Below, in pieces: positions 6,303 to 10,445 of a stretch of 64,000 nt of DNA. The position numbers and the translations under genes were made by a program. The notes under the pieces were generated by a model. The model searched no databases. It was not told the origin of the DNA and was given only the letters and a program-made list of their open reading frames with translations. Position 1 is the first letter of the stretch. The number at the start of each line of letters is the position of its first letter. Source of the stretch: an uncultured Planctomycetaceae bacterium (GTDB taxonomy: Bacteria; Planctomycetota; Planctomycetia; Isosphaerales; Isosphaeraceae); contig CAWIAD010000002.1 of NCBI GenBank assembly GCA_963833985.1, positions 3,200,001 to 3,264,000 on the forward strand, written 5' to 3'.

Positions 6303-7286
6303 ATGAACTCCATGGCGCAAACGGCGACTGCTCTCCCCGGCCCGGATCAACCGGAACCCGCAACGCACGGCCCCGCGGATCTTGAACCACCCATTCTCGT
6401 TGATTTCTTCAAGAAGATGCTCGACGAGCTCTACGACGGTGTCTACTTCGTCGATACCAGGCGGCGGATTCTCTACTGGAACGACGGCGCAGAGCGGATC
6501 TCGGGCCATGCTGCGTCCGAAGTCGTGGGGAGCTTCTGCTTCGACAACATTCTGGATCATACCGACCCAACCGGTTGCCACCTTTGCCAGGACCGCTGTC
6601 CTCTGGTCGCCAGCATCCAGACCAGGTCGCAACACTGCAAGCGGGTTTTCCTCAGGCACAAGAATGGCGGACGTGTGCCGGTCGAGGTACGCACGTCTCC
6701 CGTGACCGACGACTGCGGCAGGGTGGTTGGAGCGGTGGAGATCTTCCGTGACGCCGGAGTGGACCTGGCGCTGGAGTCGGCATACCGTTCGGCGCGGGAA
6801 CTAGCGGAGCGCGATCCACTGACCGGACTGGCCAACAGGCACTCCCTGACCGCGTTCGTCACCGAGCAGGTGATGCTCTGCCGCCATTCGGGCCGCCGGT
6901 TCTCGGTTATCATGGTCGACCTCGACCATTTCAAGGAAATCAACGATTCCCTTGGCCATCCCGCAGGGGATACCGTGCTGGTCGGTATCGCCAGGCTGCT
7001 GCTGAGCGCCTGCCGCGATACGGATCTCGCCGGGCGCTACGGAGGCGACGAGTTCCTGGTGCTCCTGCCCAACACCGGCCTGGACTTCGCGACCGCCATC
7101 GCGGAGCGAATTCGAGCGGGGATCATGGACTCCAGTCGCTCAGGGAACGCGAGCCTGCCAGGCTTATCGGCGAGCATCGGGGTTGCCGAGACGACCCCCG
7201 CGGATAGCTGGGACTCGCTGATCGCACGCGCCGATGCCGCCCTCTACCGCGCCAAGCACCAAGGCCGCAACTGCGTCCGCTCGTAA
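6303..7286 (+). CDS. PAS-GGDEF diguanylate cyclase
   Basis: PAS (DGVYFVD..WNDGAERISG), DPLTGLANR, DLDHFKEINDSLGHPAGD, RxxD I-site (RDTD) and intact RYGGDEF. Confidence 0.95.
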   Translation: MNSMAQTATALPGPDQPEPATHGPADLEPPILVDFFKKMLDELYDGVYFVDTRRRILYWNDGAERISGHAASEVVGSFCFDNILDHTDPTGCHLCQDRCPLVASIQTRSQHCKRVFLRHKNGGRVPVEVRTSPVTDDCGRVVGAVEIFRDAGVDLALESAYRSARELAERDPLTGLANRHSLTAFVTEQVMLCRHSGRRFSVIMVDLDHFKEINDSLGHPAGDTVLVGIARLLLSACRDTDLAGRYGGDEFLVLLPNTGLDFATAIAERIRAGIMDSSRSGNASLPGLSASIGVAETTPADSWDSLIARADAALYRAKHQGRNCVRS

Positions 7287-7328: not shown

Positions 7329-7727
7329 TGACCGGGGAGGGGCTCGAACCCTCGACCAACGGATTAACTTGCCTCATCGGCTTTCACCGACCACCCTGAC
7401 CGCATCGAGCTGGCGCACGTATCGCGGACAGGATGTTGATGGTCTGGACTATCTCTTCGCCATCGCAGGCGTGCCGCGTCTAGTCTCTGGGGCCGGGGCC
7501 GGTGCTCCACCGGTCCCTTGCCTGCTGATTACCCAATCCCCCTGCTTTTCAGGCCATCACGCTCGCCGTTGCCGGCCACGTTGTGGCGAGTGGGCTCTGA
7601 GGGCGTCCCAGCATACTGCGGCATCCACTCGTCGCGGTTCCGCTTCTTCCCGCGCGAGGCTCCGAACGGCGCGTCCCTTTCAAGAAGCGCTCGAAGTCCG
7701 TTGCTCTACCGACTGAGCTACCCGGTC
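7329..7727 (-). tRNA. trnK: tRNA-Lys(UUU) interrupted by a group I intron; exons 7694-7727 (nt 1-34) and 7329-7367 (nt 35-73)
   Basis: Joined exons give GACCGGG TA GCTC AGTCGGTA GAGC A ACGGA CT TTT AA TCCGT TGGTC GAGGG TTCGAGC CCCTC CCCGGTC A: all four stems pair, 73 nt, discriminator A, CCA not encoded. Confidence 0.9.
7368..7693 (-). ncRNA. Group I self-splicing intron (IC-like, 326 nt, no homing endonuclease)
   Basis: P UAUGCUGGGAC (7605-7615), Q AAUCAGCAGG (7521-7530), R CAGAGACUAGA (7479-7489), S AAGAGAUAGUCC (7446-7457); P3 UGCCGC/GCGGCA; P7 GACUA/UAGUC; 5' exon ends in U; intron ends in G. Confidence 0.92.
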
Positions 7728-7929: not shown

Positions 7930-10445
7930 ATGAACCAGAGCCGGGCATGCAGCAAGCGGACGGTGGTCTTTTCGGTCGCGGCCGCAGCACTCGGGATTGC
8001 GCTGGGCCTTTCCTCCCAGGTGTGGGCGCAAACGGAAGCCGCGCCATCGCTGAGCCGGTGCATCCCCGCGGAAGGTCTGGGCGCGGTCCTGGTTCACGAG
8101 GGGTCAGGAAGCAACCCCGGCGCCTGGAAGTCGACCTCCTTTCAGAAGATGCTCAACGAGACAACGCTCGGCGCTATGCTCGAGGACGTGCTGGCACAGC
8201 TCGCCGACCATGGATTGCGCTCGGCTCGCCGACTGCCGTTCTCCGGTAAGCAGATCACTGAGCTGGTCACATGGCTGCTCGATCACGGTTTCGCCGTCGC
8301 CGTGCTGGAGAAACCGCAGGTGCGTGGCCCGGCTGGTTATCTCGTCGTGGTGCGAGACGCCAGGCGGAATGAGCTCTTCCGCCGCGTCTTGAAGAGCATC
8401 CCTCCGCTCAATCCGCCGGCCGCGCGGGAGGTCCAGGAGGGGGGTCGCAAGCTCTGGTTGTTCGATAACGGCTTGCTGGGTGGCATCCGCTGGTGGTTCG
8501 AAAAGGACGATTTCGTGTTCCAGCTCGCGGCGAGCGATCGCGGCAACATGATCGCCGCGGCTCTTGACGGCAAGACGCCCAGCGTGCTGAGAGATCCGAA
8601 TTACACGAAGGTCGAGCGGCTTGACGCCGGCGCGGCGCCGCTGGGCAGGCTGTTCGTGAAGCTCTCGGTCTTGCCGCCGATGCCGCCTCGGGCCCACGAG
8701 CTTGGCCTGGATGACATCGAGCGGATCGAGGCGCGCTGGGGGCTCGATGGCAAGAAGACGGTCTTCTCGGTTGGCGTCCAGGCACCGCGGCCCCGGCGCG
8801 GGCTCCTCGCCCTGCTCGAGCAGCCTGCCATCCCGGCCGGAACGAGCATCAGGACAGCCAGGGGGGCCGATGGGTACACGCTGCTGTCGATCGATCCCGT
8901 CAAGACGGCCCAGACAATCATGGCCCTTCTGGAACGGGACGATCCGAATTCCGCCGCACGGATTCAACAACTGGCCGCGTCGTTCCGGGAGCGCAGTGGT
9001 CTGAGCCTGCGCGATGACCTGTTCGCGCACGTCGGGCCGCGGGTCGTCATCCTCCAGCCGGCCGGAAGCTCTCTGGGGAGCATTTTCTCGTTCTGGTTCC
9101 ACCCACCCGACTGGGCGGTAGCCGCCGAGCTGAAGGACGCGAGCGCCTTCGCGGCGACCCTCGATCGGCTGATCGACTTCGCCAACCGCGAGCTCAAACG
9201 CGCGGGGGCGATGGTGCCGTCGAGGGCCGGGCAGACGCTTCTTCCGGGGGCGGAGTTCGCGGAGTTCCGACGCCTGCCGGCTTCCGAGCACGGCTACACC
9301 CTGGCCGTGCCTCCGGCCGTCGTCCCCACTCCCGCGGGCCTGCGGCCGACGATCCTCATCGACTCCGAGCACAAGACGCTCATCCTGGCCGGATCCCCGA
9401 AGGTGGCGCGCGCGGCCCGGTCGGTGGTTGCCTGGAACGGTCCACCGGGCGAGGAGACGTGGGGACGGGAGGCCATGTTTGTTTCCCGTTTCGACCCGAG
9501 TGGGTTGCTCCCCGAACTGCTCTGCAACGTTCCCTCGCTCGTTCAGTTGATCGGCCTGGCCGCCAGCCAGCAGCGGGCACCCGGCGCGCCGCCGGCCATG
9601 CCTGGCCAGGGTGCGAGATCGGCCCTCAGGCTGCAAATCGATCCCGACCGCATTCCCGACCCCGACCAGCTACGAACGTACCTCTTTCCTTCCCATCTTA
9701 CGATCGCGGTCGGCGATGAGTCGATCCGCATGACGTCGACTCAGGCGTTTCCCTTCCCGGCTCCCTCGCTCAACGTGGGCACGGAAATGCCGGTGCTGAT
9801 CGCCCTGCTGCTGCCGGCCGTCCAGGCTGCCCGCGAGGCGGCGCGGCGGGCCCAGTGCACGAACAACATGAAGCTGATCATGCTGGCGATGCACAACTAC
9901 CATTCGGCCACGAACGCCTTCCCGCGCAACATCACCAGCAAGGACGGCAAGCGGCTCCTGAGCTGGCGCGTGGCGATCTTGCCCTACATCGATCAAGCGG
10001 TGCTCTACAGCAAGTTCAAGCTGGACGAGCCCTGGGACAGTCCGCACAACAAGGAGCTCATCCCCGCCATGCCGGGTGTGTTCCAGTGCCCGAGCCGGGG
10101 GACTGGCCCGCCCTTCACCACGACGTACCGCGGCTTCACGGGCCCCGGCGCGTTTTTTGAACCCGGCCGCGACCTGAGCATTGCGGATTTCACGGACGGG
10201 ACCTCAAACACGCTGGCGATCGTCGAGGCCAGGGAGGCCGTTCTCTGGACGATGCCCGACGAGCTCCTCTTCCCGAACCAGGCGGAGGGCGCTCCCTGGG
10301 CGCAGGCTCCGCGCATCCCGGCGGGTTCAACGCGGCCACGGCCGATGGCGCCATCCGCTTCATCAAGATGTCCATCAGCCCGGAGACGCTGAAGGCTCTC
10401 ATCACCCGTAGTGCGGGCGAGGTCATCCGGTCCGACAGCTTGTGA
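7930..10445 (+). CDS. Secreted DUF1559 / H-X9-DG domain protein; 1-nt frameshift near 10295
   Basis: Signal peptide; [53 protein letters not shown]; shifted frame continues [19 protein letters not shown] to TGA 10445. Confidence 0.88.

Follow-up and report, generated by a model that had tools for sequence, protein, structure and literature searches.

The group I intron of the cyanobacterial and plastid tRNA-Leu(UAA) gene (Leu.3Ug) lies between tRNA positions 34 and 35, directly after the wobble U, and contains no open reading frame (ORF). The lineage as a whole has retained it, although it is missing from some members, and the cyanobacterial intron has a long vertical history. A second known type is found at position 36/37 of tRNA-Ile2/Met(CAU) (Azoarcus type, Ile2.5Ug). 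The four classical bacterial tRNA types, Leu.3Ug among them, are marked as subgroup IC3 in a group I intron database, as reported by Williams (2020; bioRxiv 10.1101/2020.01.27.920355), whose scan of ~80,000 genomes raised the number of known tRNA settings from 4 to 21. The running text of that study names the four classical settings and Leu.3Cg. The intron analyzed here interrupts a planctomycete tRNA-Lys(UUU) gene at anticodon-loop positions 3/4 (tRNA 34/35), which is Lys.3Ug in the Williams nomenclature. We did not find it by titles and abstracts in the literature on Planctomycetes, Gemmata, Isosphaeraceae, and Singulisphaera together with introns.

The window, by which we mean the whole 64-kb stretch of DNA that was analyzed, is C2:3200001-3264000 of a 10.16-Mb genome (G000; 65% G+C, two contigs). 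ARAGORN in default mode found no tRNA anywhere in the window, and Rfam at gathering scores returned no match there. In intron mode, ARAGORN called a split tRNA-Lys(UUU) gene on the minus strand (7727-7329). Its halves of 34 and 39 nt join into 73 nt, and a 326-nt intron (7693-7368) lies between U34 and U35, inside the anticodon. This reproduced the half lengths, coordinates, and 73-nt join given by an earlier sequence-only reading, which had also predicted that standard tRNA finders could miss the gene, just as the default run did. Intron mode is noisy, making 141 calls genome-wide compared with 53 in default mode. Therefore, the intron-mode call alone proves little. It is joined below by Rfam alignments of homologues, covariation, and intron-less alleles, all of which back the central claim of that reading, a group I intron in the anticodon of a planctomycete tRNA-Lys(UUU). 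We conclude that 7727-7329 is the sole tRNA-Lys(UUU) gene of the genome and contains a real group I intron. The features are as follows, in the order of the transcript.

7694..7727, minus strand: 5' exon, tRNA positions 1-34, with U34 (U-1 of the intron) as its 3' end (ARAGORN intron mode)
7368..7693, minus strand: group I intron, 326 nt, with no credible ORF (ARAGORN intron mode, homologue Rfam alignments, covariation)
7660..7663, minus strand: internal guide sequence GGAG, RNA 65-68; invariant in 22/22 copies
7629..7657, minus strand: P2 hairpin, RNA 71-78 with 91-99, one bulged A; 97.1% of cells paired
7618..7623, minus strand: 5' strand of P3, RNA 105-110, pairing with 7472-7477 (RNA 251-256) and forming a pseudoknot with P7; 100% paired
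7524..7612, minus strand: P4 (RNA 116-120 with 200-204) around P5 and an extended P5 arm of ~70 nt (RNAalifold layout)
7491..7522, minus strand: P6 and P6a hairpin, RNA 206-237; six P6a pairs changed on both sides
7446..7487, minus strand: catalytic core, comprising P7, the 3' strand of P3, P8, and J8/7, the classical R and S elements (covariation)
7369..7445, minus strand: P9 domain, with a variable hairpin (RNA ~293-335), a conserved hairpin with a GAAA/GNRA loop (RNA 338-351), and 8 nt before the terminal G
7368..7368, minus strand: terminal G (omega G), G360; G in 22/22 copies
7329..7367, minus strand: 3' exon, tRNA positions 35-73, discriminator A, CCA not encoded

The gene is flanked by a PAS-GGDEF diguanylate cyclase gene (6303-7286, plus strand) and by a gene for an 820-amino-acid DUF1559 (SBP_bac_10) protein (7930-10392, plus strand), the latter consistent with a planctomycete. 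A promoter scan found no sigma-70-like promoter for the split gene. We also looked for a homing endonuclease, and Pfam gave no match in the four ORFs that overlap or adjoin the intron.

We aligned 22 copies of the gene (431 columns, mean column identity of 79%) and evaluated a structure model of 86 pairs, made up of the tRNA stems and P1 to P9 with P7 as a pseudoknot against P3. Standard pairs occupied 97.4% of 1,889 cells, compared with 26.6 to 44.4% when the partners were slid by 1 to 3 columns. Nineteen of the 86 pairs had changed on both sides, against a mean of 9.8 in shuffled alignments, and none of 500 shuffles reached 19. These changes were distributed over P2 (3 pairs), P3 (1), P5a (5), P6a (6), P7 (1), P8 (1), and the T stem (2). 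P1, P4, P5, and P6 never changed on both sides; they are consistent with the structure, and covariation is uninformative there. The helix order P1-P2-P3-P4-P5-P6-P7-P3'-P8-P7'-P9 is canonical, the P3/P7 pseudoknot included. Thus, the claim that P, Q, R, and S occur in order with P3, P4, P7, and P8 pairings held up in the alignment.

In P3, one pair changed from CG to UA in 2 copies. P7 (RNA 241 and 243-247 with 277-282) has one pair that changed from AU to CG in the same 4 copies, and P8 (RNA 257-260 with 267-270) has one that changed from GC to AU. The bulged A242 and the pair G243-C281 are present and invariant. By the Tetrahymena numbering, G243-C281, beside the bulged A, is the predicted guanosine-binding pair. 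The P5 arm is capped by a GNRA tetraloop (RNA 152-163), and P4 and P5 are invariant. Loop L2 is a conserved 12-nt loop and not a GNRA loop. In the P9/P9.0 region, two bases could belong either to a 4-bp P9 or to a 6-bp form of the GNRA hairpin. RNAalifold, run on separate blocks, recovered P1, P2, and P6/P6a together with two GNRA-capped elements, the long P5 arm and the P9 hairpin.

P1 consists of GGAG (7663-7660) paired with C32, U33, U34, and the intron base at 35 (window 7696-7693), so that a U34.G66 wobble sits at the 5' splice site. Over the 22 copies the four pairs were CG in 22, UA in 22, UG in 22, and CG in 19 with UG in 3, the first intron base being C in 19 copies and U in 3. The same P1 was obtained from RNAalifold on that block and from the Rfam alignments of homologues L020 and L014. 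Homologues with short loops (L017, L019, and L022) have a plain P1 hairpin, whereas longer copies, including that in the window, have a variable hairpin within the loop. On our reading of the alignment, P10 is weak in the window copy. The sequence-only reading had a 5' exon ending in U and an intron ending in G, and both are invariant in the 22 aligned copies (U-1 and the terminal G at window 7368); immediately before the terminal G, only 8 of them have a G. Its U.G wobble at U34 also stood, in 22/22 copies, but the partner that it proposed did not. That candidate guide, GAGU at 7627-7630 (RNA 98-101), is the 3' strand of P2 plus one J2/3 base. We rejected it as a guide because P2 covaries, with three of its pairs changed on both sides, and the last GAGU base is not conserved. 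The true partner lies in GGAG.

The Rfam group I intron model (RF00028, Intron_gpI) performed unevenly on this lineage. The window copy gave no match at gathering (50 bits): a 351-nt search produced a partial match of 12 bits (E 1.3), an 851-nt search produced none at E≤10, and the copy was absent from the whole-genome listing. Other Rfam intron families gave no match on the window sequence. Among 12 homologous loci, however, three were matched end to end, at 42, 35.9, and 35.2 bits (E 1.5e-7 to 1.6e-5). These three cover the whole model with the expected P1, P2, P3-P8, and R/S, and their P1 and R/S core align as assigned here. The other nine were missed, and the best homologue, at 42 bits, falls below the gathering score, as does the window copy. 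A second set of 14 loci included five above the cut-off, three below it, and six without a match. Those above were L064 (Lys(CUU), Pyrinomonadaceae, 56.1 bits), L047 (probable Lys(UUU), Microbacterium, 54.4 bits), L119 (Arg(UCU), Omnitrophota, 53.4 bits), L046 (tRNA(CAU), from the window's own genome, 53 bits), and L051 (probable Lys(UUU), Agromyces, 52.9 bits). Those below were L052 (45.6 bits), L076 (29.2 bits), and L074 (27 bits). RF00028 returned nothing for five Isosphaeraceae-type loci (L077, L095, L111, L118, and L088) or for the Saccharibacteria locus L105. The absence of a covariance-model hit, which the sequence-only reading held would speak against the intron, was therefore found for the window copy alone, and three of its homologues have significant matches. 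The failure of RF00028 on the window copy is outweighed by these matches and by the covariation.

We consider it highly probable that the only tRNA-Lys(UUU) gene of this genome is split at U34/U35 by a 326-nt, ORF-less group I intron with predicted two-step, guanosine-initiated self-splicing. In the proposed pathway, GGAG (7663-7660) would pair with C32-U33-U34 and the first intron base to form P1, and a free guanosine held at the P7 G-C pair beside the bulged A would attack after U34. The terminal G (7368) would then occupy the guanosine site, and the 3' OH of U34 would attack after it. The ligation of U34 to U35 would complete the UUU anticodon. Since bases of the anticodon loop, and possibly G29 and G30 of the stem, are taken up in P1, the anticodon arm would form only after splicing, and modification of the wobble base would likewise have to follow it.

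It is possible, although we think it unlikely, that the group I intron does not splice by itself in the cell and that its long P1, P5, and P9 additions need a protein helper or chaperone. Many group I introns depend on protein cofactors in vivo, the large peripheral insertions of this lineage lower the RF00028 score, and L2, as noted, has a conserved loop that is not of the GNRA type. However, all core elements are intact and conserved, and the two conserved GNRA-capped arms are typical of self-stabilizing peripheral contacts. Also, the intron has no ORF, and no adjoining candidate gene was found.

The genome appears to need the split gene. The 53 tRNAs that default ARAGORN listed across the whole genome include single genes for Lys(ctt) and Asn(gtt) but none for Lys(ttt). 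When the 399-nt gene was used as a DNA query, no second copy was found. Hence, the question of whether the genome has another tRNA-Lys(UUU), which the sequence-only reading had raised, was answered in its favor: there is none in this assembly, which is 96% complete. In 1,714 stop-to-stop frames of at least 1,800 nt, 5,331 of the 29,387 Lys codons were AAA, a crude count that possibly includes noncoding frames. A CUU anticodon does not read AAA under standard wobble rules. As judged from the assembled sequence, the split gene is the only lysine tRNA gene of the genome able to read AAA. Because there is no other tRNA-Lys(UUU) while AAA codons are in use, the gene very probably has to be spliced.

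In the survey of Planctomycetota that the sequence-only reading had suggested, the intron turned out not to be peculiar to this genome. Of 24 other family genomes, 21 had a match to the full 399 nt from end to end, at 73 to 87% identity; in 16 genomes from other families of the class, the same query matched only exon pieces. A query consisting of just the intron matched in 100 of 120 other family genomes. Counting the window's own genome, the intron occurs in 47 of 53 genera and in 44 of the 47 genomes with at least 90% completeness and at most 5% contamination. A BLAST search of 400 other sampled genomes of the phylum gave only four matches of 35 to 49 nt (E 1.7e-4 to 1e-3), none at a tRNA. 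Among the matches listed, the closest named records are Isosphaeraceae, and MAGs so labeled have 88 to 89% identity to the window; in the same matches, Singulisphaera acidiphila DSM 18658 has 81.5% (over 292 nt), Paludisphaera 85.7%, and Tautonia 83.2%. By these sequence comparisons the intron is widespread in the family, and one genus (g55) appears to be without it.

We also looked at public RNA data. No run contained the organism itself (the best share of sampled words was 0.19). Four metatranscriptome runs held relatives of at least 80% likeness, with contigs that extend over the intron and both exons and contain no splice joint; carry-over of DNA is possible in these runs. One 363-nt metatranscriptome record covers 7329-7663. 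Because the intron is covered without a joint, we conclude neither transcription nor splicing from the contigs of relatives. Four further runs yielded a single joint (7357 to 7702, with 18 other letters between them), which was rejected: its source is an unrelated organism whose tRNA-Lys is uninterrupted and differs in the anticodon stem. In run X1, an intron-containing contig of one relative meets the sequencing adapter two bases beyond the first base of the tRNA (window 7727). This single contig hints at a precursor 5' end near the mature end.

No spliced product was seen, and the window copy scores low with RF00028, as would be expected if a decayed intron or another insertion had broken up the tRNA gene and left it without function. 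We regard this as very unlikely. The exons are nearly invariant and the pairing of the intron is kept by compensatory changes over 22 copies, the intron is present in most genomes of the family (100/120, as above), and this is the sole Lys(UUU) gene in a 96%-complete genome that uses AAA codons.

The placement of the intron also has to be considered, since moving it one base further 5' (33/34) would make the gene a tRNA-Asn(GUU). The intron-mode labels of ARAGORN on the 22 copies were inconsistent (Asn(gtt) in 10, Lys in 4, other in 8), the program ignoring the U-1/terminal-G rule, and position 33 is likewise a U. However, the last intron base would be G in just 8/22 copies under the Asn placement, compared with 22/22 under the Lys reading. 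An unrelated tRNA-Asn(gtt) is already present in the genome, which otherwise has no Lys(ttt), and the discriminator is A, as fits Lys. Uninterrupted tRNA-Lys(ttt) genes occur in four genomes of the same family (G085, G087, G090, and G113). Three of the genomes with an uninterrupted gene belong to genus g55, of which the intron query matched 0/8 genomes. The sequence-only reading had named a junction reading CU-GUU-AA (Asn) as the result that would overturn it; the intron-less family alleles instead read CUUUUAA, which is Lys(UUU). One of them (L036) is identical to the predicted spliced product of the window at 72 of 73 positions, no alternative intron placement gives the intron-less allele sequence, and the 5' exon, itself invariant or nearly so in the 22 copies, equals the 5' half of these uninterrupted genes. 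At seven of eight loci from other families of the class, there is an uninterrupted tRNA-Lys(ttt) whose D and anticodon arms are the same or nearly the same. Therefore, because intron-less family members carry the predicted ligated sequence, the gene is Lys(UUU) and not Asn(GUU), and we see almost no chance that the Asn placement, which is contradicted by both the terminal G and these alleles, is correct. An intervening sequence of another kind that is removed by proteins, either an archaeal-type bulge-helix-bulge or a group II intron, is just as improbable: it has the anticodon-loop position in its favor and nothing further, whereas homologues match the group I model over its whole length, the P3/P7 pseudoknot is present together with U-1 and the terminal G, no other Rfam intron family matched, and neither a bulge-helix-bulge fold at both junctions nor group II domains were found.

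With the gene taken as a tRNA-Lys(UUU) split by a group I intron, we searched for the same setting in other bacteria. An exact scan for the core pattern J6/7-P7 ... J8/7-P7'-P9, with one genome per species, gave at least 119 stretches, of which 80 were examined. For 59 of these 80, ARAGORN run in intron mode gave a split-tRNA call. The U-1/terminal-G rule assigned 45 loci, leaving out 14 with unclear mapping and 21 without an ARAGORN call: at least 27 were Lys(UUU) 34/35, at least 7 Lys(CUU), at least 4 Arg(UCU), at least 4 Leu(UAA), and at least 3 Arg(CCU). The at least 27 Lys(UUU) loci included 14 of the Isosphaeraceae type, 11 in Actinomycetota, one in a Saccharibacteria MAG, and one in another planctomycete MAG. 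Named Isosphaeraceae with this setting were Singulisphaera acidiphila DSM 18658, Tautonia sociabilis, and a Paludisphaera MAG. At the Actinomycetota loci, Lys and Asn placements both satisfy the U-1/terminal-G rule. We read these loci as Lys because of their A discriminator, again as fits Lys, which makes those in Microbacterium, Agromyces, and Arthrobacter probably Lys(UUU) 34/35. Of three loci scanned among the Saccharibacteria and Actinomycetota ones, RF00028 scored above gathering in two, those of Microbacterium (L047) and Agromyces (L051). Related introns were also seen at Lys(CUU) 35/36 (L064, L072, L087, L089, L091, L112, and L113; Pyrinomonadaceae and other Acidobacteriota) and at Arg(UCU) 34/35 (L090, L114, L119, and L121; Omnitrophota, Elusimicrobiota, and Ignavibacteria).

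The sequence-only reading had suggested an undescribed host site. That part was not borne out, because the same Lys(UUU) 34/35 setting exists in other public bacterial genomes, which agree in host tRNA and insertion point (CUU/intron/UUAA) and in having a U at -1 and a terminal G. This host site is not new, and what is particular here is a structurally expanded Isosphaeraceae lineage that is missed by standard tRNA finders and Rfam. The Actinomycetota Lys introns are 247 to 262 nt long, compared with 300 to 355 nt for the mapped Isosphaeraceae introns, and the latter form their own clade, mostly missed by RF00028. We made a quick IQ-TREE phylogeny of 47 introns, which has long branches and SH-aLRT supports without bootstraps and serves as a guide only. 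In it, the window falls in a 15-row clade with Isosphaeraceae-type Lys(UUU) introns (SH-aLRT 98), which is nested in a larger group (SH-aLRT 99) made up of 39 introns from Lys(UUU), Lys(CUU), and Arg(UCU) tRNAs. The Leu(UAA), Arg(CCU), and CAU introns fall outside that group. The tRNA-Leu(UAA) introns differ from the one described here in host tRNA and in position in the tree, where the four sampled, all noncyanobacterial, group with the Arg(CCU) and CAU introns on the second main branch.

The window's own genome also carries an intron of the tRNA-Ile2/Met(CAU) type. This locus (L046, C2:3350324-3350759, with the intron entry at C2:3350356-3350714) is the second intron-split tRNA of the genome and is the one matched by RF00028 at 53 bits. 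ARAGORN called it Gln(ctg), whereas by the U-1/terminal-G rule the anticodon is CAU and the intron, 362 nt long, lies at 36/37. Default ARAGORN lists only two CAU tRNAs in the genome. Therefore, L046 is probably its third. It differs from the Lys intron in site and tRNA, and the two share only a 17-nt core match.

Because default tRNA finders and Rfam miss the gene, genomes of the whole family, cultured type strains included, will appear to lack a tRNA for AAA. Running ARAGORN in intron mode and applying the U-1/terminal-G rule would remedy this in annotation. For modeling, RF00028 misses a conserved, covarying group I clade, the sequences of which would be useful for its seed alignment. For evolution, an ORF-less intron present in 100 of 120 other family genomes, and absent from one genus, offers a second case of retention and loss beside the cyanobacterial tRNA-Leu intron. 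A broader idea, which we put forward as speculation and think rather improbable, is that tRNA group I introns have here a structurally expanded sub-lineage, vertically inherited and missed by current models, in which ribozyme folding or guanosine supply gates lysine decoding. If so, splicing would be a regulatory step and the intron not a mere passenger, as it sits in the sole AAA-decoding tRNA.

Some further observations concern the gene in relatives. One genome (G005) has two full intron-bearing copies (C49:137837-138236 and C33:7397-7796), for which duplication or assembly redundancy is possible. In other relatives, an extra copy of the last 35 to 70 nt of the tRNA-Lys gene lies either at a distance of 2.5 to 13 kb from the complete gene or on a different contig, at the following positions.

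G020:C14:327788-327857, extra tRNA-Lys 3' piece
G022:C3:810452-810491, extra tRNA-Lys 3' piece
G008:C62:3012-3051, extra tRNA-Lys 3' piece
G011:C503:1325-1364, extra tRNA-Lys 3' piece
G113:C315:15328-15362, extra tRNA-Lys 3' piece

Such repeats are the pattern expected from integrative elements that insert at the 3' end of a tRNA gene; the DNA search with the 399 nt found none in the window's own genome. About 190 nt from the tRNA-Lys gene of genome G006, a partial match to HEARO RNA (RF02033; L002:2087-2236) scored 34 bits (E 0.0016) against a cut-off of 83 and may be a fragment of an IS605-type element. Finally, a record labeled as a Terriglobia MAG (L118) contains an Isosphaeraceae-type tRNA-Lys with the intron, 82.5% identical to the window over 292 nt. 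Its intron nests inside the Isosphaeraceae clade of the tree, a placement that could reflect either a mis-binned contig or transfer.
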